Part shown: positions 3,166 through 25,080 of the stretch, piece by piece | How the letters are laid out: each line of letters starts with the position of its first letter | Numbering within the stretch: position 1 is the stretch's first letter | Source of the DNA: Pseudomonadota bacterium | GTDB lineage: Bacteria; Bdellovibrionota; FAC87; UBA2466 | Reading direction: 5' to 3' | Assembly: GCA_043767805.1 (NCBI GenBank) | Contig: JAYUGC010000148.1 | Location: forward strand, 1-25,080 | Length of the DNA: 25,080 nucleotides | Position numbers and translations under genes: made by a program | Notes under the pieces: model-generated | Databases searched by the model: none | What the model saw: the letters and a program-made list of their open reading frames with translations, nothing else | What the model was told of the DNA's origin: nothing

Positions 3166-4211
3166 TGGGCAAGCCCTCCATTGGCTTTGGCGCTCACTCG
3201 CAACGCAGGCACGAGATGCACCCGGATTCCTTCGAAACCTAGACTATCTTTCGGAAGCTGTAATTCCGTAAGGCGCGAGGCAAAACGCGCGGCGGTTTCC
3301 CGCAGCTCGTCTTGCGAGACTTTGAGCAAATTGGTCGCCTTGCGGATGGTAAGGGTCGGCTTGTGCCCGAAGAGCTGAATCATCTCCCGCATCCCGGGCT
3401 GATTCACCCGGATAGTGTGACCCAGGTGAGACAGCTCGGTCGTGCCGCGCTTCTCAACGGCTAAAATCGTGCGCTGGGAAAGCTGTTTGCGGTACACGTT
3501 ATCGAGCCGCTCGATATGGATGCCGACTGTGCGAAACTTGCCCCACTCCGCTTCCCGGCTGATGGCGCCGATTTCAGCACGGGCCGAGTCGAACTCCATC
3601 GCTTGCAGGTGCGCGCGGATGAGCGCGTCCTTCGCGGAGAGCAGGCAATACCACTCTTTTTGCGAATCTGTCGACGAGACTAGGGTGCTAAGCCGCTGAA
3701 TGGATTCCCCCGTGCGACCCTGGTGGCGAAGCGCGATGCACCGCCAGATCTCCAGGAGTTTCGCCAGCTGTGGATCTCTCGCCTCGAAATTCAAGGAATG
3801 GATCAGCGCCACCGTGTCACTCACGGGAGAAAGCCAGGCGAGCATCATCACGGCCTTGATGCGCATGTCGGGATCCTCGCCCGCCTTATCTCTCGCATAC
3901 TCGAAAAGCCGCTGCCCCCGCACCTTAGAGCCAGTGAAAGCGTGGACGTAACCAAGCGCGTAGGCGATTTGCGGGTTTTGCGCCTTCTCGAAATGCTGCT
4001 CGAGAATGGGCAGATAAAATTTGAGCTCGTCCACGCGATCGAGCTCGAGGAGCGTGCGCGCGTAATGACTCACATGCTCTAAATGGGCGTCGCTCAACTG
4101 AAACGGCAGCGTGGAAAACGACTGCCGGTAGATGTGATACGCCTGGCGAAATTGATAGCGACGGAAGTACTCCTGCGCCTCAGCCAGTTTCTCTTTCTCA
4201 GAGGGTCTCAT
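3159..4211 (-). CDS. TPR-like helical-repeat protein with a putative C-terminal winged-helix DNA-binding domain
   Basis: ORF 3159..4319. Start reassigned to ATG 4211 (MRPSEKEK) because a promoter-like element lies in the upstream part of the ORF. TPR-like helices (e.g. IAYALGYVHAFTG...GQRLFEYA). The C-terminal ~90 aa have a beta-helix-helix-helix-beta pattern like OmpR-type wHTH domains. Confidence 0.65.
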   Translation of the reverse strand: MRPSEKEKLAEAQEYFRRYQFRQAYHIYRQSFSTLPFQLSDAHLEHVSHYARTLLELDRVDELKFYLPILEQHFEKAQNPQIAYALGYVHAFTGSKVRGQRLFEYARDKAGEDPDMRIKAVMMLAWLSPVSDTVALIHSLNFEARDPQLAKLLEIWRCIALRHQGRTGESIQRLSTLVSSTDSQKEWYCLLSAKDALIRAHLQAMEFDSARAEIGAISREAEWGKFRTVGIHIERLDNVYRKQLSQRTILAVEKRGTTELSHLGHTIRVNQPGMREMIQLFGHKPTLTIRKATNLLKVSQDELRETAARFASRLTELQLPKDSLGFEGIRVHLVPALRVSAKANGGLAQW

Positions 4212-4243
4212 CTTAGATTTTTTTGGGAGTGCGTTAAGGCATA

Positions 4244-4271
4244 ACTCTAGCATTCGCGTCTTCCAACTCAA
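4244..4271 (-). promoter_or_regulatory. Putative sigma70 promoter for the TPR/secreted/TMEM175 operon
   Basis: Minus strand reads TTGAGT-N16-TAGAGT with a TG extension (TGcTAGAGT), about 30 nt upstream of ATG 4211. Confidence 0.4.
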
Positions 4272-4322
4272 AACATTCGAAAACGAGCGTTCGCTTTTGT
4301 TAATGCCGAATTTGGACAATTG

Positions 4323-4357
4323 CGGCGGGAGAAGGGAACCGTGCCCTTCTCCCGCCG
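4323..4357 (-). terminator. Strong hairpin, probable terminator of the protease gene
   Basis: Perfect 14-bp inverted repeat CGGCGGGAGAAGGG-N7-CCCTTCTCCCGCCG, 10 nt after the protease stop. No clear U-tract. Confidence 0.65.
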
Positions 4358-4367
4358 ACAGGTAAGA

Positions 4368-5588
4368 TCACTTCACGCCGTAGCGCACCGTGCAAGCCGA
4401 CGACCCGCCCGGCCCTTTTACGAGTCCCGCCGCGATGAAGACACCCGACGTGGCGGGAGTGATGACCCGTTTTCCTCCGCCCGCGGACACTGCCTTGCCT
4501 TCCAATTGCGCGGTGCTCACGCTCCCACTCGGGATTAAGTCCAAGGTGAGTGATTGCCCCAAGGTCACGAAGGAAGGTGTCGCTGTCACCGTGCAACTGG
4601 GCGCGGCTTCCACCGGCCCGGTGACTTTGATGTTGAGGATGGTCTCGTCCGTTCCGCTCGCGCTTTTTACGGAGAGGCGCACGAAGTACTCGCCCGCGTC
4701 GTTCTTGCCGGGCTTCATGATGAGCGTGTCATCATAAACACTCATCCACGATGGCGCCGCGGACTCGATGGACCAGCTCAGGTTTCCCGACGCTCCGTTG
4801 ACCAAGACTTCCAGGGGCTGGTCGAGCTCGCCGCCGGCCGGGAACGAGAACGTAAAGACCTGCTTCTTGAAGAGCGGGGCCGCGGGCTTGCCATCGCAAC
4901 TTTCCGACACGCCGCAAATCTCGAGGCCACTGGTGTCCGCGACATCGACGAGAAACTTGCGTGTCTCGGGAAGAGCCAAATAAGAGCTGTAGTTCGTGTC
5001 TTTGATGTTGCCCTTGCTGTTGATACCCACCACTCGGTACTCACCGGCTTCCTTGGCTAGGGCCGGGCCACCGGAATCTCCAAAACAAAGGGCCGCACCG
5101 TTTGCCGTATTCGACACGAAGTCCGAGGCGGAAAAGGCGCTTACCACGGACGTCCCCATGCGAAGCGCTCCGTCATTGCCGCCGCCACCTCCCGGCGAGG
5201 TGCAGCCGTAGCCCAGCAGAAACACTTGATCGCCTACGGCGACCGTGCTGCCCACCGCGACGGGCCTTGCTCCGTTGATGTCTTCATCCACAACGACGAC
5301 GCTCACGTCCGTGTCCTTCGCGGGATAGTCCGGATGCCGAATGCCTTTTCCCCGATAAGGGCGGGCTCCATACGAAAACTCGACAGTATCTCCCGTCTTG
5401 AAGCAGTGAGCCGCGGCGATCAGCGCGCGAGGTCCCACCACCGTGGCGGTACAAGTCCCGCCGTTGGACTTCACCGTTACGATTTCCGAAAACGTCCCTT
5501 TGGGGACGACCACGCCATTGATGATGCGAGTACTGGCGCTAGCGACGAAACACAGCGCCAAAATAAGAGCCGTTATTGGGAACTTCAT
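4368..5588 (-). CDS. Secreted S1 (chymotrypsin/trypsin-fold) serine protease with two C-terminal Ig-like domains
   Basis: Signal peptide, activation site R|IING, catalytic motifs AAHC, DTDVSVV and GDSGGP. C-terminal He_PIG/cadherin-like module (APSWMSV...DAGEYFVRLSV) and a second Ig-like module. SD-like GAGG upstream. Confidence 0.93.
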   Translation of the reverse strand: MKFPITALILALCFVASASTRIINGVVVPKGTFSEIVTVKSNGGTCTATVVGPRALIAAAHCFKTGDTVEFSYGARPYRGKGIRHPDYPAKDTDVSVVVVDEDINGARPVAVGSTVAVGDQVFLLGYGCTSPGGGGGNDGALRMGTSVVSAFSASDFVSNTANGAALCFGDSGGPALAKEAGEYRVVGINSKGNIKDTNYSSYLALPETRKFLVDVADTSGLEICGVSESCDGKPAAPLFKKQVFTFSFPAGGELDQPLEVLVNGASGNLSWSIESAAPSWMSVYDDTLIMKPGKNDAGEYFVRLSVKSASGTDETILNIKVTGPVEAAPSCTVTATPSFVTLGQSLTLDLIPSGSVSTAQLEGKAVSAGGGKRVITPATSGVFIAAGLVKGPGGSSACTVRYGVK

Positions 5589-5762: not shown

Positions 5763-7016
5763 GTGCACTCCGTCGTCAGACTTCTCACGGCAGTATGGCT
5801 CTTGAGTCTATGCGCCTGCGCGTCACGGCAACTCGACTTCACCTGGAAACCGAAGGAAGTGAACGGCCGCAAGGTCATCCTCTTCGTCCCTGGGCTCTAC
5901 GGATCAGCTCTTGCCGAGACCAAGTCGGGAAGCCGCGTTTTTCAGACCCTCGGTCAGGCGCTTTGGGGAAAAATCCCGCTCGCTCTCTCCGGAAAAGAAC
6001 TGGGCATCGAAGACGCACGTGAGCTTCGCGCCGACGGGGTTTTAGATGGCGTCAACGTAATCCCGCTAATCTATACGGCCGATGGCTACGGAGATACCTT
6101 CGATTATCTAACCGATACCTTCAGTAAGAAAACGAAGGTCATTCCCTTCGCCTACGATTGGCGAAGAAACAACGTAGAAGCCGCTCAGTTACTCGGCCGC
6201 AAGATCCGGCAGCTGCGCGCGGCGGGCGCGAAATCCATCGCTCTCGTCGGTCACAGCCTTGGCGCCCTGCTCGTCGCCTATTACCTTAGGTACGGCGAGC
6301 AGGAACTCGAGAAGGCTGAAGAAAACTGGGAAGGCACGAAGTACGTCGATGCCGCGGTCGTCGCGGGGGGGCCCTACGCCGGCTCCATGACTTCCTTTCA
6401 TGATTTCCTGCGCGGCACTTCCGTCGGGCTCTCCAGCACTCCGCTCGCCGCGGAAAGTATCGGTACCTTCTACTCTTTCTATCAGTTTTTACCACGGGTG
6501 GAGACCGGCTACTTTCTCAGCCCGGACATGTCGTCTTTCGGAGAAGCTCTCTTTAGCGTCGACAACTGGAGAAAATGGAACGCCGGTCTCTTTAGCGGCG
6601 ACAAGAAAGCGAAGGGGCCGCTGCTTCTCAAACGAACGAAATACACCGAGCGGGCGCTGAGCGTGGGCCGTAAATTTTCGGACCTCATGGCCAGGCCGCA
6701 GTCTCATCCCCCGATTCGCAAGATTTCGCTACTAGCCATCTCTGGCACGGGAAAGAAGACTCTAGGACGTGCGTACTGGTCAGGAAAGCAGTGGCTCTTT
6801 AAGGACAAAGCCATGCGCGAAATTACCGGCTCAGAGGTGGCGACCTTGCTTGAAGACGGGGACGGCTTGGTAACGACGGCCTCCTCCAAGTTACCCGCGG
6901 CCTTTAACAGCCTTGCCGTGCAAATCTTTCAATTTCCCATGGAGCACAGAGGCATGTACTTGCAATCCGACGTGCAAGACAAGGTGACTCCCTTTCTCAC
7001 GAGTCTCGGGTATTAG
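5763..7016 (+). CDS. Lipoprotein alpha/beta-hydrolase, LCAT/phospholipase-like lipase or acyltransferase
   Basis: Lipobox-like LCAC; motifs FVPGLYGS (oxyanion), FAYDWR, nucleophile GHSLG, GDGLV (Asp) and a C-terminal EH (His), the typical LCAT-family motif order. Confidence 0.88.
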   Translation: MHSVVRLLTAVWLLSLCACASRQLDFTWKPKEVNGRKVILFVPGLYGSALAETKSGSRVFQTLGQALWGKIPLALSGKELGIEDARELRADGVLDGVNVIPLIYTADGYGDTFDYLTDTFSKKTKVIPFAYDWRRNNVEAAQLLGRKIRQLRAAGAKSIALVGHSLGALLVAYYLRYGEQELEKAEENWEGTKYVDAAVVAGGPYAGSMTSFHDFLRGTSVGLSSTPLAAESIGTFYSFYQFLPRVETGYFLSPDMSSFGEALFSVDNWRKWNAGLFSGDKKAKGPLLLKRTKYTERALSVGRKFSDLMARPQSHPPIRKISLLAISGTGKKTLGRAYWSGKQWLFKDKAMREITGSEVATLLEDGDGLVTTASSKLPAAFNSLAVQIFQFPMEHRGMYLQSDVQDKVTPFLTSLGY

Positions 7017-8803
7017 TTCGTCGGCAGCGTGGCCGGGATGCGGCCAGTGGTCTTTTGATAGGCTTGGGAAAGCCGCGAGAACGCAGCGCAGTTCCAGGTC
7101 AAACCGACGGCGCCGATGGAAACCACGGGTGCATCCGGATCGCCGCTGAACTGTTCGCTCGTGAACCCGTTGGCGTCGATACCGCTCGCCAGGATGCGAG
7201 CGCCGATCTCATTACCCCGGTGCTCAAGCTTCTTTTGAATCTTAGAGAAAAGCTCTGGGTGCGTTTTCGCGTTGATCTTGAGGCTGCTGTCCGGATGTTT
7301 CTCGAGTTGCTGCGCCCATTCCTCGGGAAACGCCCCGTTCATGACGATTTCATAAAATCGGCGGTTAAAGGTATTGACCTCGAGCTCTCCCGCTTTCGCG
7401 TTCTCGTTGGCGACGCGATAAAACATCTCGCCCATCGCCATGGTGGTGATGATCCACGGGTGACCGGCCGATTTCGGGCTACCATCTTCGTTCTGAAGCC
7501 GGCGCTCGCCCGTCCAAGGATCTTTCCGATAGCGGCCGTAGGCGGTTCCGGGAATGCCTTCGATGCGATTCATGGTGAAAGCCGGATCGTTTTTGAAGTC
7601 GTCGTGCAATTTCGCGGCAGTGGCCTGGACTTTGGGGTCACTGACGGAGAATCGTCCCCGTTTACGGCGGAGCGCCGCCATGATGACGAGCATGTCGAGA
7701 TCGGAGTCTTTGCGCATGCCGCCCTTAATATTGATACTCGACTTGATATAACCATCCTGGAAAAAGTGATCCAGGGACGCAGCCGCCTGGAGGCCGGCAT
7801 TCCTATACGGTTCCGCGCCGGGTAAACCCTGGCGCTCCATGAGCCTCGCGCCCTCAAGCAAAGCTTCCGCCTGGACTGCGCGCGTGAAGAAGTGATCGCC
7901 GTACACTTCTTCCCAAGCATCGTAAGAAGGATCTCCCCAGCGGCCTTTCAAGAAGTCCAAGTCGTGTTTCAAGACGGCGAGCGAAGTCTCCATGGCTTTG
8001 GTGACTTCTTCAGGAACCGCTTGGTTAGCCTTAAGAACGTCTTTTCTATCCAGCTGAAAACCTGCGTACGCTTGAATGACGGCCACAGCCCGCAACGCGG
8101 GACCATCATTTTGAGGACGTCCCCAAGGCTCGTCGAACGCGGCCGGCTCCCACGTCTTTCTTCCGTCCTCATGGGTCACTTCGATGACCCGGTACTTTGG
8201 CTCGCCGTAACGCACCGGAATCGCGCCGTGGTGTTTTTCATCCACGAAAAAGCCCGCGCCTTTTTCATCGAAAACCATCCACTCGTGCTTGATGGGCGTT
8301 TGCTGAACCTTTCGGGAAAAATCGACAAAAGCTCTGAGCACGGTGGAGTACTGCTTTTTCTCTTCGCTCGTGGAGGCCGGGCTCATGCGCATGTAGGCCA
8401 CGCTTTCGGCGGCAATCCCCGAATCGCGAATCCAGTGGAAGCGGTAATCGGGCTCGCCCGGATCTTCGCCCTCGGGCGGACGACCGCCGGACGGAGACGC
8501 GAGCACCGCTCCCGAATAGGAGCCGTCGCTATTTTTTATGAAATTAGTAAGAAGGTGTTCCTTTTGCGAGGCACGCCATTTCGATCCTTCAGCATCGAAA
8601 GTCTGGCGAAGCCTGTCGGCGCTCTCGTCCTGGGTCAAAGAAGGCAAGGACCACCACGAACGAGGCGCCTTCTGTTCGGCGTCGGGCGCGGGCGCGGGAG
8701 TGCCATCTTTTGGCGGCTCCGCTTTTGAAATTGTGGTCAGTGCCAAGCCTAGCAAGACCAAATATAGAAGCCTCTTCAACCCATACCCCCTAATGCGACC
8801 CAT
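7013..8803 (-). CDS. Secreted glycoside hydrolase family 15 glucoamylase (fungal-type motif set)
   Basis: Signal peptide; motifs ASPS, PDY-x-x-HWIRDS, GEPKY, WGRPQNDGPALRA, DAWEE (catalytic acid), GRY-x-x-D, GHPW, SEQ (catalytic base), LTW. Confidence 0.9.
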   Translation of the reverse strand: MGRIRGYGLKRLLYLVLLGLALTTISKAEPPKDGTPAPAPDAEQKAPRSWWSLPSLTQDESADRLRQTFDAEGSKWRASQKEHLLTNFIKNSDGSYSGAVLASPSGGRPPEGEDPGEPDYRFHWIRDSGIAAESVAYMRMSPASTSEEKKQYSTVLRAFVDFSRKVQQTPIKHEWMVFDEKGAGFFVDEKHHGAIPVRYGEPKYRVIEVTHEDGRKTWEPAAFDEPWGRPQNDGPALRAVAVIQAYAGFQLDRKDVLKANQAVPEEVTKAMETSLAVLKHDLDFLKGRWGDPSYDAWEEVYGDHFFTRAVQAEALLEGARLMERQGLPGAEPYRNAGLQAAASLDHFFQDGYIKSSINIKGGMRKDSDLDMLVIMAALRRKRGRFSVSDPKVQATAAKLHDDFKNDPAFTMNRIEGIPGTAYGRYRKDPWTGERRLQNEDGSPKSAGHPWIITTMAMGEMFYRVANENAKAGELEVNTFNRRFYEIVMNGAFPEEWAQQLEKHPDSSLKINAKTHPELFSKIQKKLEHRGNEIGARILASGIDANGFTSEQFSGDPDAPVVSIGAVGLTWNCAAFSRLSQAYQKTTGRIPATLPTN

Positions 8804-9132: not shown

Positions 9133-11136
9133 TCAAGCAAAAGCCGAAGGCACGAATTGCGGATGCTGCAGGATGCGCGCCTCAAAAGACGCGCGCGCCG
9201 TTTCGGCGAGGCCTTCCGGGAATTTCGCCTGGCTGCGTCCCCAGCGATCTAGCCATTCTCCGCCGAGTAGCGCCGTGCTGACGGGCTTTGCGTAAGCCGC
9301 CGTCGTCTCCGCCTTGGGGCCCGTGCCCACGCCTGGCGCCACGAAAAAGCCCGCGGAAAGAAGCGCGGCTCTCACCGCTGTCGATGCGGAGTAAGTAAAA
9401 AGCTCGGCTTGGCGGCCCATACAAGCGCGGTGGACTTTCGCGAACGTCTCCGGAGTCCAAAGCCCCGAATCGGTTTTCGCCGAGAATGGATCGTAGAAAA
9501 TAAAATCAGGAGGAGGCGCGCTTTCCAAGTAATCGAGGAAGTTTCCTTTTAAGAGCTCCCATTTTAGGAGACCGCCCGCGGCTTCCCACTTGCCTTGGCC
9601 CACGAGGCCATGAGGGGCGCCGTGACAGAGGTGAGGGAATTTCGTCGGGTGCTTGAGCGCGAGCTTCAGCGGATCGAGATCGCACTCGAAGCTCACGATT
9701 TTGAGAGGACGAATCAAGGGATTTTCTTTATATGCCGCTTCGAAGCAGCGAATGGTCGCCATGGCGTTCGTTGCGGCGCCGAGACCCACGTCCCAGATGA
9801 CGAGCGGGTCGCCGCTCTGTTTGAGCCGTTCGGAAAGCTTGGCCTGCTCGACGTAAAGGCGGTTCGCCTCTTCGGTCGGCTCGCTCACCGAGTGCATCAC
9901 TTCGCCCGAGCTCACTTGGCGGATGCTCGAAAAACCTCTGCCTGAGTCATGCACTTCGTAATCGCCGCGCTTTAAAGGTGGCTGTTTTTTCACGCGCGGC
10001 ACGGTGGCGCTGCTCCAGTTGTCGGTGCGAGAGAGCGCTTCCCGGCGGCCTTTGTAATACTCGGCAAAAGTTCCCGCAAGAATGTTCGCGCGGATTTCTC
10101 GCATCATGCGGTGAAAGAAAGTGAGGTTATGGAAAGAGAGCAGATGCCAGCCGAGCACTTCTCCCGTCTTATAGAGATGATGCAAATAGGCGCGCGAGTA
10201 CCGCGTGCAAGTCGTGCAGCCGCAATCCTCGTCCAGACTCTCCTCGGAAAACTTGTACTTCTCGCGCCGAAGCTGCAGGCGGCCTTCTTTAGTATAGGCG
10301 GTACCGCGCTGGGCGACTTGCGAGGGAAGGATGCAATCAAACATGTCGACGCCCCGGTGCACCGCTTCGAGAATGTCGATGGGAGTTCCCACCCCCATCA
10401 AATAGCGCGGCAAATCCCGGGGGAGGAGCGCCGCCGTCATTTCGCAGAAATCCTCGCGCTCCTGCTTAGTTTCGCCCACCGCGAGCCCTCCGATGGCGAA
10501 GCCGTCGAAAGGAAGCTGCGTCAGAAATTCCGCGCTCTGTTTTCTCAAATCGGGAAAGCACGCGCCTTGCACGATGGCGAACATCGACTGCGGCGAATCT
10601 CCCCGAGCCGCGAGACTTCGCTTCGCCCAGCGGTGGGTGACGCCGAGTGCCGCCAAGGCTTCTTCACGCCCCGCCGTGGAGGCAATGCATTGGTCGAGCA
10701 CCATCATGATGTCGCTGCCAATGGCCTTCTGCATCCCGATGCTGATCTCCGGCGAGAGCAGATGCATTTTGCCGTCGACGTAACTTTGAAAGCGCGCCCC
10801 TTCCTCGTTCATTTCGCGGGAATGAGGGAGCGAGAAAATCTGAAAGCCACCCGAGTCGGTCAATATGGGCCCGTCCCAGTTCATGAAGCGGTGGATGCCG
10901 CCGAACTGGCGGAACACTTCGGGACCGGGCCTGAGAAGCAGGTGATAGGTATTGGCGAGCAGCACCCGCGATCCCGCTTCCTTCAGGGAATCGATGGTCT
11001 GGCTTTTCACTGTTGCCTGGGTGCCGACCGGCATGAAGATGGGCGTTTGCACCTCACCATGGAGCGTCTTAAAGGTGGCGGCGCGGGCGCGGGAACCCTC
11101 GGCTTCCTTTGCTACGGTAAATCCCAGTCTCGGCAT
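9133..11136 (-). CDS. tgt: tRNA-guanine(34) transglycosylase fused to a C-terminal MnmD/MnmC2-type SAM-dependent methyltransferase
   Basis: N-terminal ~370 aa: TPIFMPVGT, NTYHL, DSGGFQ, LDQC, IVQG, GGLAVGE, YLMGVG, DMFDC, Zn site CGCTTC...HNL. C-terminal ~280 aa: DVGLGAATN, IVSFE, FYDPFS...LWT, TYSASTAVRAALLSAGF, GPKAET, matching the MnmC MTase motif order. Single uninterrupted ORF (9133..11172); ATG 11136 is the likelier start. Confidence 0.93.
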   Translation of the reverse strand: MPRLGFTVAKEAEGSRARAATFKTLHGEVQTPIFMPVGTQATVKSQTIDSLKEAGSRVLLANTYHLLLRPGPEVFRQFGGIHRFMNWDGPILTDSGGFQIFSLPHSREMNEEGARFQSYVDGKMHLLSPEISIGMQKAIGSDIMMVLDQCIASTAGREEALAALGVTHRWAKRSLAARGDSPQSMFAIVQGACFPDLRKQSAEFLTQLPFDGFAIGGLAVGETKQEREDFCEMTAALLPRDLPRYLMGVGTPIDILEAVHRGVDMFDCILPSQVAQRGTAYTKEGRLQLRREKYKFSEESLDEDCGCTTCTRYSRAYLHHLYKTGEVLGWHLLSFHNLTFFHRMMREIRANILAGTFAEYYKGRREALSRTDNWSSATVPRVKKQPPLKRGDYEVHDSGRGFSSIRQVSSGEVMHSVSEPTEEANRLYVEQAKLSERLKQSGDPLVIWDVGLGAATNAMATIRCFEAAYKENPLIRPLKIVSFECDLDPLKLALKHPTKFPHLCHGAPHGLVGQGKWEAAGGLLKWELLKGNFLDYLESAPPPDFIFYDPFSAKTDSGLWTPETFAKVHRACMGRQAELFTYSASTAVRAALLSAGFFVAPGVGTGPKAETTAAYAKPVSTALLGGEWLDRWGRSQAKFPEGLAETARASFEARILQHPQFVPSAFA

Positions 11137-11256
11137 CGGAAGTGCATAGCATAACGGCCGAACGGAAGCCATTTGAGCGCCGAGGCAGTTGTGGGTTTTG
11201 AGCCCCGCCTAGGCTATAGCTAGGAAATAATTCGCTTACTTGACGAGGAAATCCCG

Positions 11257-12387: not shown

Positions 12388-12894
12388 ATGACCTACGAAT
12401 TCGTGCCGCAATTTGCCAAGATGCTAACGAACCTTTCCGCCCTTTTGGATAAGGCGCAGCAGTACGCGGACGCCAAAAAATGTGACGTGGGCAATCTGCT
12501 CACCCACCGACTCGCGCCCGATCAGTTTCATTTCACCCGCCAGGTGCAAATCACCTGCGACTCCGCGAAAGCTTACGTGGCGAAGCTCACCGACAAAGAA
12601 GCGCCCAAGCACGAGGACAACGAGACTACGGTGGCCGAACTCAAAGAACGGATTCAAAAGACCATCGCGTTCTTGAACACCATCAAGGCCGAGGATTTCA
12701 AGGGCTGGGAGACCAAAAAGGTCACCAATCCGCGCCGCGAAGGCAAATACCTTCCGAGCAACGAGTACGCCATGGAACAGGCGATTCCCAATTTCTATTT
12801 TCACATGGCCACCGCCTACTCCATCCTGCGTGCGAGCGGCATCGACGTGGGTAAGAAGGATTTCCTGGGCGAGCTGAAGTGGCGTCCCCTCTGA
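12388..12894 (+). CDS. DUF1993 family protein (DinB/YfiT-like fold)
   Basis: Motifs RLAPDQF-x-F-x-x-QVQ-x-x-CD, DNETT-x-x-EL-x-x-RI-x-KT, PNFYFH-x-x-TAY-x-ILR, GKKDFLG; strong SD. Confidence 0.93.
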   Translation: MTYEFVPQFAKMLTNLSALLDKAQQYADAKKCDVGNLLTHRLAPDQFHFTRQVQITCDSAKAYVAKLTDKEAPKHEDNETTVAELKERIQKTIAFLNTIKAEDFKGWETKKVTNPRREGKYLPSNEYAMEQAIPNFYFHMATAYSILRASGIDVGKKDFLGELKWRPL

Positions 12895-14057
12895 TCTACG
12901 ACCCCTGGTTCAAAGTCAGCCTGCCGCTCATCGCGGCGGGAGCGAACTTGAAGCTACACGTGCCCCATGACGTGTTCTCCACCCAGCGCATCGACGAGGG
13001 CACGCTGCTGCTTCTCGATCACCTGCCTCCTCACGCGCCGAGTTCCGTTTTGGACATGGGCTGTGGCTATGGGGCCCTAGGCCTTCCGGTCGCGGCTCAT
13101 TATCCCGAGGCCGTCATCGAAATGGTCGACAGAGACCTACTCGCGGTGCATTGGTCCCGGCTAAATGCCGAAGCGAACGGTCTCGCCAACGTTGAGGCGT
13201 ACGGGAGTCTCGGCTTTCGAGACATCCCGCCGAAGACGTTCGACTGGATTCTCTGCAACGTTCCGGCGCGCATCGGCCGTCCGTTCATGGAAACTTTACT
13301 AAGCGAGAGCCAGAATCGGCTCCACGCCGGAGGTGAGCTTCGTATCGTCGTCATCAACGATCTGAATCCGGTGCTCGATGAGATAAAGAAGGCGAATCAC
13401 TGGGGCCTGGTCGAGATTGCCCGAGGCCCGCGCCATACCGTTTTTGCCTTGCGGGCCTCCGACAAAAAGCCCGACCTCGCCACGCCCGATCTTTATTTCC
13501 GCGACCGGGTCGACATCGCGGGCCTCACCCTCGATAGACCCTTCGATTTGGGTGGAGACGATCCGAAACGGCTCGCCAAGGGACTTCCGGTTTTGATAGA
13601 CGTCCTGCCACGCCAAACCCCGAAGGGTTCCGTATTTTGCTTTCGCAGCGGCTATGGCGTCTTGCCGCTCCTCGCCCGCACCCGCTGGCCAGAGAATGAG
13701 ATCGTCGCCGTCGACCGCGATCTTCTCGCCACGACTTTTACGAAGAGAAATGCGCAAGCTCTCGGCCTCGCGGGACCGTTACTCACGGTGAAAGAGAGCG
13801 CCCACTTTCCGGAGCTCCTCGCGGGCGAAGCTCGTTATGGGCTCATCGTGGGAGAACTTTCTCCTTCTGCGGGAGAGAAAGTGGCGGCCGCGGAATTAGA
13901 AGCCATCGCGGGCTCGCTGGCGCCAGGCGGAAAAGCACTGCTCCTCGGTCTCGAGAAATTAGAGCGCGATTGGGTCCGTCCCTTCGCGGCAAAGAAGCGT
14001 CTCACCATTATCCCCCTCATCACCCGAGACGGCCACACCGTCTTGAGCCTTACGTAG
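12879..14057 (+). CDS. Tandem-domain class I SAM methyltransferase, RsmC/MTS-like
   Basis: VFS-x-x-x-IDEGT-x-LLL, VLDMGCGYG, VDRD, FDWILCNVP in the N-half; degenerate second copy (RSGYG, VDRDLLA) in the C-half. GTG start overlaps the end of DUF1993 by 16 nt. Confidence 0.85.
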   Translation: MASPLIYDPWFKVSLPLIAAGANLKLHVPHDVFSTQRIDEGTLLLLDHLPPHAPSSVLDMGCGYGALGLPVAAHYPEAVIEMVDRDLLAVHWSRLNAEANGLANVEAYGSLGFRDIPPKTFDWILCNVPARIGRPFMETLLSESQNRLHAGGELRIVVINDLNPVLDEIKKANHWGLVEIARGPRHTVFALRASDKKPDLATPDLYFRDRVDIAGLTLDRPFDLGGDDPKRLAKGLPVLIDVLPRQTPKGSVFCFRSGYGVLPLLARTRWPENEIVAVDRDLLATTFTKRNAQALGLAGPLLTVKESAHFPELLAGEARYGLIVGELSPSAGEKVAAAELEAIAGSLAPGGKALLLGLEKLERDWVRPFAAKKRLTIIPLITRDGHTVLSLT

Positions 14058-14060
14058 CCT

Positions 14061-15068
14061 CTAGACTTCGCAGACGACGATTTTGAGCGGGGGTTTTCCG
14101 TCGAAGGAGGGGAAATCGCTCTCAGGCTCGAGCGGCGTCACGGTTCTGAGCGGACGGCCGGCTTTGCGCGCGCATCGTTTGAGCGAATCGATCCAGGCGT
14201 CTCTATCGACGGAAGCGAGGTGGTTCGTCGCGACGATGCGGCCTCCCCCCGGACGAGCGATGAGGACCGCCGGCTTAAATAGACTCTGGTAATCGTTCTC
14301 GATGTCCACGGCTCCAAAAGCCCCTTTGGACCAAGCGGGCGGATCCAGGAAAACCAAGTCAAAATTTCTGGCGTCGAGTTTCGTCGTTTCGCGGGCCTTA
14401 TTGCGACGTCCACCGGCGGGAAGCCCGGCCAACTGACGAAGCGCGGGAAAACAATCTTCTCTTAGCGAGCGGATCCGTTCGGGAGCGACGCCATTCAAAA
14501 CCGCATTGCGATCGCCAACTTCGAGGCTCGAAGCGGCGAAGTCGATATTGCAAATCTCCGTGGCGCCGGCAACGGCGGCGGCAATGCCAGCGCTGCACGT
14601 ATAGGCAAAGAGGTTCAGCACCGATCCGGTCCGCACGGTGTCTTTCAAATAGCGGCGGCCCACCCGGAGATCGAGAAATAGCCAGGGGTCGATACCCTGA
14701 TGGCGCGCTCGGATCAGATACTTCACGCCGAGCTCATGACCGATCTTTTCTTCGAGCGCTTTAGGGGAAGGCTCATGCCAAGTCTCGAAAGTTTCCCCTC
14801 GAGATTTACCCCGGTGGTTATAAGCGAGCTCCAGGGGCAGAGAGAGCGACGCGCGCAGAGCAGCCTCGAGCTCTTTTTGCTCGGCTTCCATCAAAGGCTC
14901 CCGAAACGTTTGGACGAGAACGAGACTGCCGTACCGATCGATGGTGAGACCCGCTCTGCCTTCGGAAACCCCGTGAAAAAGGCGGAAACAATCCGTCTTT
15001 TCGTCCCGGAGACGATTGATGAGACCCGAGCGCGCGGCCAGGGCTTTTTCCAAAAGCGGCAAAAACAT
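14061..15068 (-). CDS. RlmI/RlmK-family SAM-dependent (rRNA) methyltransferase, lacking the N-terminal PUA domain
   Basis: Motifs FRLFHG-x-x-EG-x-x-GLTIDRYG, LFLDLR, VLNLFAYT, NIDFA, FDLVFLDPP. Confidence 0.88.
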   Translation of the reverse strand: MFLPLLEKALAARSGLINRLRDEKTDCFRLFHGVSEGRAGLTIDRYGSLVLVQTFREPLMEAEQKELEAALRASLSLPLELAYNHRGKSRGETFETWHEPSPKALEEKIGHELGVKYLIRARHQGIDPWLFLDLRVGRRYLKDTVRTGSVLNLFAYTCSAGIAAAVAGATEICNIDFAASSLEVGDRNAVLNGVAPERIRSLREDCFPALRQLAGLPAGGRRNKARETTKLDARNFDLVFLDPPAWSKGAFGAVDIENDYQSLFKPAVLIARPGGGRIVATNHLASVDRDAWIDSLKRCARKAGRPLRTVTPLEPESDFPSFDGKPPLKIVVCEV

Positions 15069-15190
15069 GGAAGCCCGTACTTATCACACTGTCTCCGAAT
15101 AGATACAGGGGGAAACAGCGGTGTCAGCCTCTGCCATCGATGGCGCACCGTTTGCATTCTTGCCTCGTAGACTTTTTACAGCCCGGAAGG

Positions 15191-16921
15191 ATGATGAAGC
15201 GGAGTATTTTCATAGCGGCAATGCTGGGGCTCGTTTCCTGTTCAGGCGAACCCAAAACCTCTCCCTTGTGCCCTCATTTTGAGATGGTTAAAGGCGAAGT
15301 CGACGACTTCACGGACGTCGAAAAGGCCATGGTCTGCGGAAAAGCGGACAACCCCGGCTGGAACAACATTCCCGATAACCAAGCCACCTTTCACCTCAAG
15401 TCGTTTTTAGAAGCGCGGGGTTACTTCAACCCGAAATTCGAGTCGAAAAACGGAAAGGTCTTCATCGACGTGGGTCATCGTACCAAGGCGACCTCTCTTA
15501 AGGTGGAGGGCGCTCCCAAGGAAATCCGGCCCGAACGGCTGAGGGGCTTTAAAGGCAATGTGCTGAACCCGGCTCTGCTGAACGGCGAAAAATCCCAGGT
15601 CAGGCAGCTTCTCGAGTCCGAAGGATACGCCTGCCCCACCGTCGAAATGCAGGCGAGCTCCGAGACCGGAGCTCTGATTGCCACCGTCACTCCGGGGCCG
15701 AGAGAGCCCGTCATGAGCATCGAAACCGATCCCGTAGAGGGTCTCGATCCTCTCGTGCTCCGACGCTATGACGCTTTCCTTTTAGGCGAGCCCTACAACG
15801 CTGATTTACTTGGATTGACGACTCAAAGAACTCTCGTGGACGGCGTAGTCCAGAGCACTTATTTCACTGCCGCTTGCACTCCGGAAGGGACGATCTTACG
15901 TCAGCACGTAGTCGCCGGTCCCTCTCGCACGGTTGCTTTGGGATTGGGTGCCAATACCGAGCGCGGTCCCGTCGTGCGGGCAAGTTGGAAGAATGCTCGG
16001 CTGGGCACTTACGGTTCGAGCCTCGAAACGATAGCTTCCGGATCTTTTAAGGAACAATCGCTCAACGCGAAGTTTTCTTGGTACTACCAGAACCACGCCT
16101 CTCGCCATTATTTGCGCCCGGAATTGCTTTTGCGCCACGAGAACATCAACCCCCACGACAACCTCACGGGTAAGTTGCAGGTGGCTCCCGCCTGGAGCAA
16201 CGATAGCCAAAGCCTCGGCTGGACGTTTTTCACGGGACCCATACTGAACTTCGAGCACACCTACCGCGGAGTGGGTCCGAAACGTTTTGCGTTCTTGTCT
16301 CTCGGCGTGGACCTGAAAATAACCGATCACTATTACGAGCTCTATAAGAGCGAGCCCCAGGAAGGCTTCGAGGTAGGCCTTCAGGCCAACCTTGCGCAAA
16401 GAGGCGCCGCTTCGGCCATTACCGCGCAAAGTCTGCAGCTCACCTTCTCGAAGCTCTGGAACTTCAAGAGTTACTTGCCCCCGCTTATGGTGTTCGGCTT
16501 TAGGGCGGGATTGAAAACCACCGTGACTCAAGAAAAGGTCACGAACGCGGCCTTACCGACGAGTTATCGCTACACTTTGGGCGGCTCCAATAACATTCGC
16601 GGCTTTTCGCTCGATGAATTACCGGGCGACGACCAGGGAGCCCTTACCACTCTCTACGCGTCCGTCGAAGCTCGGGTGAACGGTTTACTTCCTTTCAAGA
16701 TTCAACCTTTTCTCTTTTTCGATGCGGGCGCTCTCGGCAAAGGTTCCGCGACCCTCTCGAGCCCCCTCTTCCTGTCCCCCGGTCTGGGACTTAGATCCCA
16801 CTCCCCCATCGGGGTCATTCGGGTGACGGGCGCGCGGGGCATGATTTCGGGGAATCGAGGCGCCTTCGCCGGTCTTTCCCCCCATTGGCAATTCTATTTC
16901 AGTTATGGGGAGGAGTTTTGA
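15191..16921 (+). CDS. tamA: Omp85 family outer-membrane protein, TamA-like, with a predicted lipoprotein signal
   Basis: ORF 15140..16921, likelier start ATG 15191. POTRA-like segments (LEARGYFNP, LESEGYA), barrel L6 motif GGSNNIRGF, SPIGVIR, C-terminal FYFSYGEEF; directly upstream of a tamB-like gene. Confidence 0.85.
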   Translation: MMKRSIFIAAMLGLVSCSGEPKTSPLCPHFEMVKGEVDDFTDVEKAMVCGKADNPGWNNIPDNQATFHLKSFLEARGYFNPKFESKNGKVFIDVGHRTKATSLKVEGAPKEIRPERLRGFKGNVLNPALLNGEKSQVRQLLESEGYACPTVEMQASSETGALIATVTPGPREPVMSIETDPVEGLDPLVLRRYDAFLLGEPYNADLLGLTTQRTLVDGVVQSTYFTAACTPEGTILRQHVVAGPSRTVALGLGANTERGPVVRASWKNARLGTYGSSLETIASGSFKEQSLNAKFSWYYQNHASRHYLRPELLLRHENINPHDNLTGKLQVAPAWSNDSQSLGWTFFTGPILNFEHTYRGVGPKRFAFLSLGVDLKITDHYYELYKSEPQEGFEVGLQANLAQRGAASAITAQSLQLTFSKLWNFKSYLPPLMVFGFRAGLKTTVTQEKVTNAALPTSYRYTLGGSNNIRGFSLDELPGDDQGALTTLYASVEARVNGLLPFKIQPFLFFDAGALGKGSATLSSPLFLSPGLGLRSHSPIGVIRVTGARGMISGNRGAFAGLSPHWQFYFSYGEEF

Positions 16922-19245
16922 ACGTCGTGAAAAAAATTGGAAAGGGACTCCTCTTCGGCTTAGGTTTCCTGACTGCTTGGGTCTTCATCCTCGCCCTCGT
17001 GATTTGGATTTTTCCCGCCCTACTCGTCACCAACAAGAACCTCGAACGAACCTCGCATTTTCTGAAGGGTAAAGGGATAGTGATCACGTGGCGGACTATT
17101 GACGTACACGCGAAATCCGCCTCGTTTTTGAAGAAGCAGCTTTCTCTCAAAGCCACCGATCTTTGCTACGGCGCCGAAGAGGAGCCGATGCGAGCCTGCT
17201 TTGGCTCCGCGGATCTTCTAGCGGCTTTTTCTCTAAAGGCTCCCGCCTACCAGGTCGATCACCTGGTACTCGCCGGAGGCGATGTCACGCTCCGCCCCAC
17301 TCCGGCTAAAAAGGAAGCCGAGAAGGAGAAAAGCCCTTCGACGGAGCTCTGGCCTCGGGCTCCCAAATTTTTGGAGTCCATGACGTTCCAGTCGATCGAC
17401 GTAGCCGTCGATAAATTACGGTATTTTCTCGAGGATGGCTCAATTCAGGGCAAAGCTCGCCTTATCGGCAAAGCGGAAGGAAAAGGCGCCAAGTTCGACG
17501 TCCAGAGCGACGCGGTCTTTGAAACGAAGGACAAGCCGTACGCTTTGAAGGCCAAGATCGATTTAGCGAGCAAGGACTCTCTCTGGTTTGGCCCCTATGT
17601 CATCGATGGCGATGCCAGCGCCAATCTCCCGGGTAAGCAGGTCGGCTGGGTCAAGATTCACGGGGTGCCCGACAAGGACGCCACGTCCATGACCTACGCC
17701 ATTGAAGGAGACTATCGTCAGCGTAAAGAACGTTTTGTCGGTAAAGTCAGCGGCGTCGCCGGCAAGAAGTCTATCGAAGCGCTCATCAACATGCAGGCCC
17801 AAGGCCTCGTCCCTCAACTCGCTAAAATCACGGCCATGGACTGCAAGGTTCAACTGAAGCCTCAGAACCCTGAAGGCACGAAGAGTCAGCTTTTACTGAA
17901 CTGCCCCGTTTCCCTGGTCGCCAATCGCGAAGTGTACCGAGGTGTCTTTTATGAGGAGATCCTCCGCGAGATGAAGCTACTCGTGAACCTTAAAGTCGAT
18001 CGCGAAGACAAGGGAGAAAAACGCGGCTCGCTGACCGGAGAGCTTGCCGTCTTGGTAGACCCCTTGCTTCAGCGCGCGAAAGAAGGAAACGCTACCCTTT
18101 CCACGAAGTTCACGGGCAATGCGCTCGAGTCCCCCAGCAGCTGGCAGTTTGATTCCAATCTCGATCTCAATATCCCTCATTTCGAGACCCTAGTGGCGGT
18201 CTCTCATAAAAAACCATGGGCCGTCCCCGCCCCACTCAATCATCTGAAAGGGAGTGTGGTCTTGAAGGTCTCCGGCAAAGGCGACCTGGCGAAGCTGCAA
18301 GCCAATCTTCCGGTGACTCTGACGACCAGACTTTCCGCGCAGGACCAAGTCATGAATATCGACGGCAAGGGTGCGCTCAGCATGGGGAAGAAGGCTGACG
18401 GAACCCATACCCACCTAGGATTCGAGGTGACGCTCGCGAACCTGAAGCTCATTCTCCCCGAGCTCGCGCAAAGCTCGCCGCCGCAGCTGCTTCCCGATTC
18501 TCGGATCAATCCCAATCCTAAAAAGGAAGCCGCTTCCGCTTTCACCTACGACATTAAAATTCTCACGCCTCAGCAGCAGCCTTTGCGCCTGGTTTCCAAT
18601 CTCGTGAAACAGGAGGTCCCCATCGCGGTGGACGTGCGTTTGCAAACGGGGCAAGACCCGAAAGGCTTCGTGCGGGTCGCGGGCGTGCCGGTCGAGATGT
18701 TTCGCCGGGTCGCCCAGCTGAAGCACTTAAATCTCTTGCTCACCGGAAATTCCGAGGCCACCGCCATCGACGGCCTCATCCAAGTCGCCTATACGGATTA
18801 CACGGTCTTCGTGATGATCGAAGGCAAAGCTTCCGAGCCCCAGATCAAGTTCCGGAGCGAGCCTCCCCTTCCCGAAGATCAGGTGCTGGCGGTCCTTCTC
18901 TTCGGCCGCAAGATGGACGCGCTCGATTCGAACGAAAGTAGCTCGGTCGGCAATACGAAGGCCGCCATCGCCGACAGCGCCATCAGCTTGGCCTCAATGT
19001 ACTTACTGGCCAGTACGCCGGTCGAGAGCGTTGGCTTCGATCCGTTCACCCACGAGTTCAAGGCAAAGCTAAAGCTCGCCGACGGGACCTCGCTCAATGT
19101 GGGAACCGACATGAAAGCCCTTTCCGAGATCGGGATCCGTAAGAGGCTTGGGCCGCACTGGAGCGTTACCACTTATCTAGAGAACCCGCTTTCTCCACTC
19201 GGCCAATCCGTCACCGCGTTTCTCGAGTGGAGCAAGGCTTACTGA
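16918..19245 (+). CDS. tamB: TamB-like (DUF490) translocation and assembly module protein
   Basis: N-terminal TM anchor, beta-rich body, DUF490 motif G-x-A-x-x-P-x-I-x-F-x-SEPPLPEDQVLAVLLFGR, terminal EWSKAY. Start uncertain: TTG 16918 overlapping the tamA stop, or GTG 16927 after GGAGGAG. Confidence 0.85.
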   Translation: MNVVKKIGKGLLFGLGFLTAWVFILALVIWIFPALLVTNKNLERTSHFLKGKGIVITWRTIDVHAKSASFLKKQLSLKATDLCYGAEEEPMRACFGSADLLAAFSLKAPAYQVDHLVLAGGDVTLRPTPAKKEAEKEKSPSTELWPRAPKFLESMTFQSIDVAVDKLRYFLEDGSIQGKARLIGKAEGKGAKFDVQSDAVFETKDKPYALKAKIDLASKDSLWFGPYVIDGDASANLPGKQVGWVKIHGVPDKDATSMTYAIEGDYRQRKERFVGKVSGVAGKKSIEALINMQAQGLVPQLAKITAMDCKVQLKPQNPEGTKSQLLLNCPVSLVANREVYRGVFYEEILREMKLLVNLKVDREDKGEKRGSLTGELAVLVDPLLQRAKEGNATLSTKFTGNALESPSSWQFDSNLDLNIPHFETLVAVSHKKPWAVPAPLNHLKGSVVLKVSGKGDLAKLQANLPVTLTTRLSAQDQVMNIDGKGALSMGKKADGTHTHLGFEVTLANLKLILPELAQSSPPQLLPDSRINPNPKKEAASAFTYDIKILTPQQQPLRLVSNLVKQEVPIAVDVRLQTGQDPKGFVRVAGVPVEMFRRVAQLKHLNLLLTGNSEATAIDGLIQVAYTDYTVFVMIEGKASEPQIKFRSEPPLPEDQVLAVLLFGRKMDALDSNESSSVGNTKAAIADSAISLASMYLLASTPVESVGFDPFTHEFKAKLKLADGTSLNVGTDMKALSEIGIRKRLGPHWSVTTYLENPLSPLGQSVTAFLEWSKAY

Positions 19246-23089: not shown

Positions 23090-23113
23090 ATTTTAAAAGG
23101 TACCTTTTAAAAT
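23090..23113. promoter_or_regulatory. Perfect 24-bp AT-rich palindrome, candidate operator
   Basis: ATTTTAAAAGGTACCTTTTAAAAT equals its own reverse complement. It abuts the amine oxidase stop and lies about 95 nt upstream of the cupredoxin start. The palindrome is certain; its function is not. Confidence 0.5.
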
Positions 23114-25050: not shown

Positions 25051-25080
25051 GAAACCCTCCAAGTAGGCGCGGAATATGAC

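Follow-up and report, generated by a model that had tools for sequence, protein, structure and literature searches.

To our knowledge, the synthesis of queuosine is regarded as a closed and well-mapped pathway with one Tgt per bacterium. The Tgt of Escherichia coli requires UGU in the loop (cited in PMC1635277). MnmC2 methylates the aminomethyl group of 5-aminomethyl-(2-thio)uridine at position 34 of tRNA (nm5(s2)U34), and the characterised MnmC2-type enzymes covered in that account all act on tRNA and not on free bases (PMC3527978). Here we analyse a gene which joins the two families in one chain. It lies on contig JAYUGC010000148.1 (assembly GCA_043767805.1, Bdellovibrionota), and the whole stretch of 25,080 nucleotides analysed is called the window below. 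The Tgt half, Tgt2, belongs to a clade of additional, catalytically conserved Tgt paralogues, and the methyltransferase half, T-MT, is by sequence and fold a sister family of MnmC2/MnmD. The coupling of Tgt2 to T-MT is near-obligate.

Fusions of this architecture (COG0343/PF01702 plus MnmC2) are already listed in ‘Alternate routes to mnm5s2U synthesis in Gram-positive bacteria’ (bioRxiv 10.1101/2023.12.21.572861), and the part of the preprint available to us gives no function, paralogy analysis or experiment for them. Our literature search returned no characterisation of a Tgt/T-MT fusion or of such a second bacterial Tgt, and its matches to ‘Tgt paralog’ concerned DpdA. An earlier note, made from the letters of the window alone, had known of no characterisation and had supposed that the architecture might exist in databases; the first point stands, while the second can be sharpened, as the architecture is in print. 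New in the present analysis are the paralogy of both halves, the presence of a further, stand-alone Tgt in every carrier examined, the rewritten helix after the nucleophile of the fused one and the near-obligate coupling of Tgt2 and T-MT.

Two described systems offer partial parallels. In phages, the transglycosylase DpdA is described as inserting preQ1 into DNA, where N-methylation by DpdM, a metal protein of the DUF3109/YkgJ type, yields methyl-preQ1 (7-(methylamino)methyl-7-deazaguanine; available part of PMC10516641). The proposed chemistry is the same as that considered here, with DNA as the substrate. However, DpdM is unrelated to MnmC2, and its DUF3109/YkgJ-type Cys-rich domain is not in the fusion protein, in which a Pfam scan of the whole chain found no family besides TGT and Methyltransf_30. 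A link to the phage DpdM is thus ruled out. In eukaryotes, QTRT1 and QTRT2 set a precedent for two Tgt-family paralogues in one cell, and QTRT1 matches the fused Tgt with an E-value of about 1e-92. QTRT2 is non-catalytic and pairs with QTRT1, whereas both bacterial paralogues described here keep all catalytic residues.

The gene is a single open reading frame, unbroken over both domains (679 amino acids, minus strand, 11172 to 9133). Its true start is probably the ATG at 11136, where the earlier note had placed the end of the feature, because fused homologues align only from residue ~12–13 in a consensus of 59 sequences. The Pfam family TGT (PF01702) covers residues 28–379 with 476 bits, and the NCBIfam equivalog model of Tgt (TIGR00430) scores 446.1 bits against a cut-off of 306.75. 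Beyond the linker, Methyltransf_30 (PF05430) matches residues 554–628 (48.4 bits, cut-off 22), and the MnmC2 model NF033855 matches residues 422–627 with 76.1 bits, below its cut-off of 136. The anatomy first read from the sequence, a single frame with a complete Tgt, a Pro/Lys linker and a methyltransferase, is confirmed by Pfam, NCBIfam and motif alignment. An AlphaFold model of the full protein, built on a 59-sequence alignment, is confident for both domains (predicted local distance difference test, pLDDT, 92.4; predicted template modelling score, pTM, 0.64). The linker is its sole low-confidence stretch, with pLDDT below 50 at residues 388–395. A complex prediction of the Tgt2 domain with the T-MT domain, for which controls were not run, gave scores of 0.00 and 0.00.

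The fused Tgt does not stand for the housekeeping enzyme. The source genome (4.52 Mb; completeness 100%) contains a second PF01702 gene, a stand-alone tgt of 376 amino acids followed by yajC and secD, the classical context in which the fused gene is not found. To follow the gene through the phylum, 251 Bdellovibrionota genomes were sampled, each at least 90% complete and the source genome included; a fusion was counted as a single open frame of at least 525 amino acids. All 67 carriers have at least two PF01702 matches and a stand-alone Tgt, a second tgt being one of the checks suggested in the earlier note. A stand-alone Tgt is likewise present in four of four Leptospiraceae carriers, and a stand-alone Tgt with the higher score in four of four carriers from other phyla. 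A maximum-likelihood tree (IQ-TREE quick search; support by the Shimodaira–Hasegawa-like approximate likelihood ratio test, SH-aLRT, only) was calculated from 67 Tgt domains chosen by hand (31 fused, 36 stand-alone; the duplicate locus L003 was not used). It splits with 100% SH-aLRT into a canonical group of 24 rows and the Tgt2 clade of 43 rows. The Tgt2 clade unites all 31 fused rows with 12 stand-alone ones, and its basal rows are stand-alone. The stand-alone tgt of the source genome falls in the canonical group; the fused Tgt, placed in the other clade, is not orthologous to the housekeeping tgt of its lineage.

Despite this separation, Tgt2 retains the known enzymatic equipment. The fused domain shares ~45–50% identity with the bacterial Tgt of E. 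coli, Zymomonas mobilis and Thermotoga maritima (PDB 1ozm, 2ash) and belongs to the same fold family, solved chains matching it with E-values of 1e-106 to 1e-110. Alignment to the solved Z. mobilis and T. maritima enzymes, including PDB 1ozm, recovers D106, LDQC (159–162), GGLAVGE (228–234), D279, CGCTTC (317–322) and H348. The catalytic Asp pair (Z. mobilis D102 and D280), the preQ1 pocket (D, C, GGL-A/S-VGE, M) and the zinc site are therefore the same, as had been noticed from the letters for the Asp pair, the zinc site, the Cys of LDQC and the Val of GGLAVGE. Within the pocket, D156, C158, G230-L231-A/S232-V233 and M260 of Z. mobilis correspond to D160, C162, GGLAVGE 228–234 and M259 of the fusion. 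Column counts were made for 43 Tgt2 and 21 canonical rows, with positions numbered on the fusion protein. All 43 and all 21 rows have the same catalytic Asp residues and zinc ligands as well as D160, Q202 and M259; C162 is retained in 42 of the 43 Tgt2 rows, and V232 in all 43 as well as in 20 of 21 canonical rows (the remaining one has I). In 59 fused sequences, D106, D160, C162, Q202, G228–E234, M259, D279, C317, C319, C322 and H348 are invariant. With its catalytic, preQ1-pocket and zinc residues intact, the Tgt2 half looks active.

The differences which run through the clade cluster at two places, the helix after the nucleophile and the surroundings of the base-pocket motif (counts in Table 1). 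In the fusion the helix reads S284-Q285-V286-A287-Q288-R289, so that the canonical PTR-x-A-R-N pattern has been rewritten. Compared with the bacterial Tgt enzymes of known structure, Tgt2 is a separate paralogue clade with an altered helix and a fused or otherwise coupled methyltransferase. In the TGT–RNA complex described in 2003, R286 and R289 of the Z. mobilis enzyme are said to read U35; the literature searched held no statement on such a role. From the residues kept and lost we infer that Tgt2 is catalytically competent, accepts a base of the size of preQ1 and reads its RNA differently on the 3′ side of the target. Its status as an extra paralogue, together with the altered RNA-facing helix, points to a different RNA site.

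Other unusual Tgt genes were seen in the sample. Most genomes of family f9 and six of six genomes of family f6 have two stand-alone, high-scoring Tgt and no fusion. The second copies (L061, at G104:C1:1554181-1555236, L062 and L063) form a third lineage, grouping among themselves (97% support) within the canonical part of the tree. They show altered helices after the nucleophile (e.g. PTKFARGG, PTRYARNA), and one has DMSDC as against DMFDC. Furthermore, two Tgt2-clade genes without a methyltransferase domain, L049:1209-3272 in G231 and L140:1063-3006 in G207, have frames of 688 and 648 amino acids. In these, ~265–295 residues with no Pfam match precede the TGT domain; they may form an N-terminal domain of a new kind, or the frame may simply run on upstream without a stop.

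The methyltransferase half is also set apart from its best-known relatives. Searched alone (285-amino-acid query), the T-MT domain yields 1817 representatives at E ≤1e-3 and 261 at E ≤1e-30, a mix of stand-alone proteins of ~270–300 amino acids and fusions of ~660–690 amino acids. Thirteen of 13 representatives scored against NF033855 (10 stand-alone, 3 fused) remain below the MnmC2 cut-off, at 50–104 bits. On the fetched loci the phmmer scores are bimodal, with at least 91 bits for T-MT versus 19–50 bits for canonical MnmC and MnmD-like proteins. In a tree of 88 domains (LG+G4, quick search, SH-aLRT; three duplicate loci left out), T-MT forms a clade of 68 rows with 99% support. Nineteen of the 21 MnmC/MnmD-like rows lie outside the T-MT side and the other two fall on that side of the drawn tree: L094, on a long branch, just outside the clade and L020, an 88-amino-acid fragment, inside it. 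Within T-MT, the fused domains and a few stand-alone ones form one group (93%), and two more groups are stand-alone only. T-MT, as a clade of its own, is not orthologous to the characterised MnmC2/MnmD.

The fold nevertheless leads to MnmC2. An AlphaFold2 model of the T-MT domain (45-sequence alignment) reaches a pLDDT of 96.4 and a pTM of 0.93. In a Foldseek search against the PDB the nine best matches are all MnmC2/MnmC, with E-values of 8.7e-15 to 8.7e-12, and the next match has 2.7e-8. The best structural matches are the MnmC2/MnmD family (DUF752), that is the N-terminal domain of E. coli MnmC and the stand-alone protein of Aquifex aeolicus (PDB 3vyw, 3awi, 3ps9, 2qy6), with query-normalised TM-scores (TMq) of 0.56–0.69. 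The class I N-methyltransferase fold, motif I and the catalytic DxF are common to both families. In contrast, sequence identity is only ~20%, motif IV reads DPF(S) where MnmC2/MnmD have D(A/G)F(A/S)P, and a C-terminal helical extension (~residues 630–679) is specific to T-MT. In MnmC2, motif I is described as (GX)GXGXN and motif IV as DXF with the catalytic Asp (PMC3527978). Motif I of T-MT, G463-L-G465-A-A-T-N469, has Ala in place of the third Gly. Among 59 fused sequences, D461, G463, G465, N469 and D561 never vary and, judged by motif I and the conserved D561-P-F563, the methyltransferase half looks active. On this sequence and structural comparison, T-MT is a sister family of MnmC2/MnmD, separate from the housekeeping enzymes.

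One genome holds two T-MT copies close together. At locus L122 of G160, a member of f9 (G160:C1:1226000-1240000), a fusion at 2937-4976 is followed 5 kb downstream by a stand-alone T-MT at 9957-10805. In the tree no domain is more closely related to the fused one than this copy, and the arrangement suggests that the methyltransferase half was recently duplicated.

The two families also occur together where they are not fused. A Tgt2-clade gene is present in 76 of the 251 genomes, fused in 67, fragmented in 2 and unfused in 7. A T-MT gene (E ≤1e-15) accompanies it in 75 of these 76, the exception being G099, which is 92% complete. In G075, G103, G194, G216 and G219, Tgt2 and T-MT are unfused and located on different contigs. 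In many carriers, one or two stand-alone T-MT paralogues are found in addition.

The fusion is widespread and patchy, and it extends beyond Bdellovibrionota to Leptospira, Verrucomicrobiota and other lineages. The earlier note had suggested searches with PF01702 and PF05430 and a survey of the architecture: both models match, and the survey found the intact fusion in 67 of the 251 genomes, with pieces at contig ends in two further ones (G207, G061). In the family of the source genome, 13 of 27 genomes are carriers. The best 120 matches in a collection of 5.8 billion proteins all have both Pfam domains, at 64–72% identity, and the source names among them include Oligoflexia, Bdellovibrionales, Opitutaceae, Lacunisphaera limnophila and Spirochaetes. 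A complete Leptospira sp. chromosome is among the named records that carry it, as are Chthoniobacterales, Bacteriovorax and other metagenome-assembled genomes. Among 41 Leptospiraceae genomes, 4 have the fusion and 1 a split version. An assembly artefact absent from relatives, which had been conceivable at the outset, is ruled out by the best 120 matches, the 67 carriers, and the occurrence on long contigs and complete chromosomes. Horizontal spread is indicated by the patchy distribution together with the tree, where Bdellovibrionota rows surround the fused rows that come from Leptospira, Chthoniobacterales and other phyla.

The ordinary wobble pathways exist alongside. The fusion had been proposed in the earlier note as an alternative to maturation by QueA and QueG; a lack of queA, queG or queH in carriers was one of its suggested checks, and ordinary queuosine in carriers one of its refuting outcomes. 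By that standard the view has to be given up: the source genome has queA, queF, a canonical tgt and queG (227 bits, cut-off 200), while queH was not found there. Of the 251 genomes, 248 have queA; among the 67 carriers it was found in 66 and missed in G156 (93% complete). Replacement of QueA/QueG by the fusion is therefore rejected. The observation that no queA adjoins the gene in the window is correct; it lies elsewhere in the source genome.

For the synthesis of 5-methylaminomethyl-2-thiouridine (mnm5s2U), MnmG and MnmA were found in the source genome. A separate mnmC, mnmD or mnmM had also been suggested as a check: some carriers have an mnmC or an MnmD-like gene, and none of the three was found in the source genome. 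Among the 67 carriers, 14 have a canonical MnmC, with an MnmC2 match above cut-off in a frame of 610–780 amino acids (the size of bifunctional MnmC). A match above cut-off was also obtained for two Leptospiraceae carriers (227 and 215 bits), and the carriers of genus g7 have a separate MnmD-like gene of 254–257 amino acids. G133, from the same genus as the source genome, has no MnmC2-type match at all. MnmG, searched with PF13932 at E 1e-10, was found in 182 of 251 genomes; those missed are concentrated in families f9 and f4, where E-values are borderline. Since TIGR00136 is above cut-off in five of five f9/f4 carriers tested, these misses are a threshold artefact of the 57-position model and the absence of MnmG does not discriminate. 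Aragorn predicted 41 tRNAs in the draft source genome, with none for Asn, Tyr, Ile or Trp, and the set gave no clue to the target. A draft with a stated completeness of 100% thus lacks two of the four tRNAs on which Tgt classically acts.

Taken together with the enzymology of the relatives, these features suggest a coupled reaction in two steps, in which a preQ1-type base would be inserted at a non-canonical RNA site and then N-methylated by the fused domain. Tgt2, paralogous and with its catalytic residues in place, would exchange guanine for a preQ1-type 7-deazaguanine. The RNA site would probably lie outside the U33-G34-U35 loops in the tRNAs for Asp, Asn, His and Tyr. The MnmC2-like N-methyltransferase would then methylate the free aminomethyl group of the inserted base, giving N-methyl-preQ1, which would not be processed by QueA; the enzyme would work beside the ordinary queuosine pathway and not in its place. 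N-methylation of preQ1 is chemically analogous to the known reaction because preQ1 carries the same aminomethyl group as the nm5(s2)U34 substrate of MnmC2. The earlier idea of insertion followed by N-methylation is strengthened by the separation of T-MT from the housekeeping MnmC2/MnmD and by the co-occurrence in 75 of 76 genomes. We consider it the best single explanation and put it forward tentatively. The sequence data show the fusion itself, the identity of its domains, their intact active sites, the paralogy of both halves and their co-occurrence; which base is inserted, where in the RNA, what accepts the methyl group and in which order the steps proceed are our inferences.

Several findings weigh against this proposal. 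The Cys and Val of ordinary preQ1 enzymes are both retained in the base pocket, and nothing there demands a new base. The reading of U35 by R286 and R289, as reportedly seen in the 2003 complex, is not stated in the literature searched. The window contains no queuosine-related gene, queA included, and the neighbourhoods give no specific clue. A single Tgt is present in 14 of 89 T-MT-family genomes, which shows that this family is not strictly dependent on Tgt2. MnmG is present in the carriers checked, making nm5U available as a rival substrate. Finally, the source genome has no second PF05430 match and no MnmM; with the fused domain as its only MnmC2-type gene beside MnmG and MnmA, a plain MnmD role could be filled by it there.

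This last point leads to the rival explanation that survives best, although we regard it as unlikely. The chain would combine two independent activities, a divergent MnmD which converts nm5(s2)U34 to mnm5(s2)U34 in tRNAs of the Glu/Lys/Gln type, and a second Tgt which differs, for instance, in tRNA preference or regulation, and the fusion would only co-localise or co-regulate them. By sequence and by fold, no family is closer than MnmC2; the source genome, which has MnmG and MnmA, contains no MnmC2-type gene besides the fused domain, and stand-alone T-MT occurs in single-Tgt genomes. The preprint cited above also lists MnmC2 fusions with several unrelated partners (bioRxiv 10.1101/2023.12.21.572861). 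However, 14 of 67 carriers and two Leptospiraceae carriers already possess a canonical MnmC, and G133 shows that the lineage needs no MnmC2-type gene. T-MT also stands apart from MnmC2/MnmD-like genes with 99% support, and independent activities do not predict its presence in 75 of 76 Tgt2 genomes.

It is improbable, in our view, that the halves modify different nucleotides, with Tgt2 serving mainly in RNA binding and targeting, or inserting its base at a new site, while the methyl group goes to another nucleotide of the same RNA. The flexible linker would allow this, as would the modest overall pTM of 0.64 despite confident domains, and stand-alone T-MT genes lie beside varied tRNA and translation genes (LeuRS, Pth, TrhO-like, truA). 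On the other hand, the invariance of all Tgt catalytic residues in the clade argues against a purely targeting role, and the MnmC2 fold with its DxF motif indicates an amine acceptor.

Least probable among these alternatives is another order or acceptor, namely methylation of free preQ1 before its insertion by Tgt2, or of the secondary amine of epoxyqueuosine or queuosine on GUN tRNAs: the clade-wide changes beside the base-pocket motif (161 Q in 31 of 43, 165 S in 42 of 43, 166 T in 41 of 43), lying near D160/C162, would fit a bulkier base, Tgt2 is nearly always accompanied by T-MT and not the reverse, as expected if T-MT makes its substrate, and queA is present in 66 of 67 carriers, but the pocket-size residues C162 and V232 are unchanged, a second Tgt is superfluous for methylating the queuosine made by the first, and the characterised MnmC2-type enzymes act on tRNA and not on free bases, in the available account (PMC3527978).

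What is at hand is a second Tgt lineage in several phyla, its catalytic residues intact and its RNA-facing residues altered, tied to a methyltransferase family of its own. Current pipelines label the fusions plain ‘Tgt’ and comparative studies count the methyltransferase half as MnmC2, which would lead to miscounting of the queuosine and mnm5s2U pathways in carrier lineages. Should the coupled insertion and N-methylation of a preQ1-type base be correct, it would add a new modified RNA nucleoside and a new substrate class of Tgt, and would offer a natural example of recombined wobble-modification modules. We know of no report of an N-methyl-preQ1 nucleoside in RNA. Rather doubtful is the wider proposal of an unrecognised 7-deazaguanine branch in RNA, where Tgt2 would place preQ1 outside the four classical GUN tRNAs, in another G34 tRNA or loop, T-MT would cap it as N-methyl-preQ1 and the stand-alone T-MT paralogues would extend the chemistry. 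The full picture of a dedicated second Tgt with N-methyl-preQ1 as its product, accessory and horizontally mobile, in about a quarter of the sampled Bdellovibrionota species and in some Verrucomicrobiota, Leptospiraceae and other lineages, likewise appears possible but unlikely when all its parts are taken jointly.

Table 1. Features of the fusion gene, alignment columns in which Tgt2 and canonical Tgt differ, and other genes of the window (positions are those of the window; residues are those of the fusion protein)
Feature	Position	Strand	Residues and remarks
Whole open reading frame	9133..11172	minus	679 aa; stop TGA 9133-9135
Probable true start, ATG	11134-11136	minus	M13; gives 667 aa
Tgt2 domain	10036..11091	minus	Residues 28-379; PF01702, TIGR00430
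Nucleophile Asp279 and following helix (DCILPSQVAQRG)	10303..10338	minus	Canonical PTR-N-A-R-N replaced; from alignment column counts
LDQC motif	10687..10698	minus	Residues 159-162; equivalent of Z. mobilis D156-E157-C158; Asp and Cys kept, Glu to Gln
Zinc-site CxCxxC	10207..10224	minus	C317, C319, C322; sequence CGCTTC, 317-322
Fourth zinc ligand	10129-10131	minus	H348; from alignment to solved Tgt
Interdomain linker	9961..10035	minus	Residues 380-404; 25 residues, Pro/Lys/Arg-rich
T-MT domain, class I S-adenosylmethionine (SAM)-dependent N-methyltransferase	9136..9960	minus	Residues 405-679; by sequence a sister family of MnmC2/MnmD
T-MT motif I, WDVGLGAATN	9766..9795	minus	SAM binding, G-x-G-x-A-x-N; motif as defined in PMC3527978
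T-MT motif IV (FYDPFSAKTDSGLW)	9457..9498	minus	D561-P-F563; equivalent of the catalytic DxF of MnmC2 (PMC3527978)
Position 285 (Z. mobilis R286), helix after nucleophile			Canonical R19, K2; Tgt2 A22, Q13, K3, S2, M2, E1
Position 288 (Z. mobilis R289), helix after nucleophile			Canonical R21; Tgt2 Q32, E7, K3, R1
Position 289 (Z. mobilis N290), helix after nucleophile			Canonical N21; Tgt2 R22, Q19, N1, H1
Position 161 (Z. mobilis E157), beside base-pocket motif			Canonical E20, Q1; Tgt2 Q31, others 12
Position 165, beside base-pocket motif			Canonical L13, H4, Y2, F2; Tgt2 S42, A1
Position 166 (Z. mobilis P162), beside base-pocket motif			Canonical P21; Tgt2 T41, others 2
Position 239 (Z. 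mobilis M240), elsewhere			Canonical M21; Tgt2 R43
GH15 glucoamylase-type gene	7013-8803	minus	
Gene with two MTS (RsmC/RlmG-type) matches	12879-14057	plus	392 aa
Methyltrans_SAM (RlmI/RlmK-type) gene	14061-15068	minus	
Omp85/TamB-like pair	15140-19245	plus	
Copper amine oxidase gene	23113-25062	minus	447 bits

The fusion gene stands alone in the window, with the GH15 glycosidase gene downstream after 329 bp and a divergent AI-2E transporter gene upstream; a promoter and terminator scan around it gave matches at chance level. For T-MT at large, neighbours were examined around 24 stand-alone loci and two fusion-type loci, covering 89 of 204 candidate open reading frames, and no conserved neighbourhood was found among these 89 frames at the 26 loci. 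Some neighbours with functions in tRNA metabolism or translation recur, namely LeuRS twice, Pth together with PRPP synthetase twice, a TrhO-like gene, RlmF and DbpA. In G160, truA (PseudoU_synth_1; L122:2130-2933) lies directly upstream of the fusion and ends 4 bases before its start. At locus L095 of G194, a stand-alone T-MT gene (2898-3770, minus strand) is arranged head-to-head with a UPF0176 plus rhodanese gene (3688-4479, plus strand), followed by Methyltransf_32. We take the UPF0176 plus rhodanese gene to be a member of the TrhO-type tRNA U34 hydroxylase family, and the arrangement is a hint that the T-MT family works on wobble bases.

Two other genes, which resemble RNA methyltransferases, are located in the window. 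The gene with the MTS matches lies 1.7 kb from the fusion and is tail-to-tail with the Methyltrans_SAM gene, and the pair is not co-oriented with the fusion. The copper amine oxidase gene, the Omp85/TamB-like pair and the GH15 gene look ordinary and unrelated.

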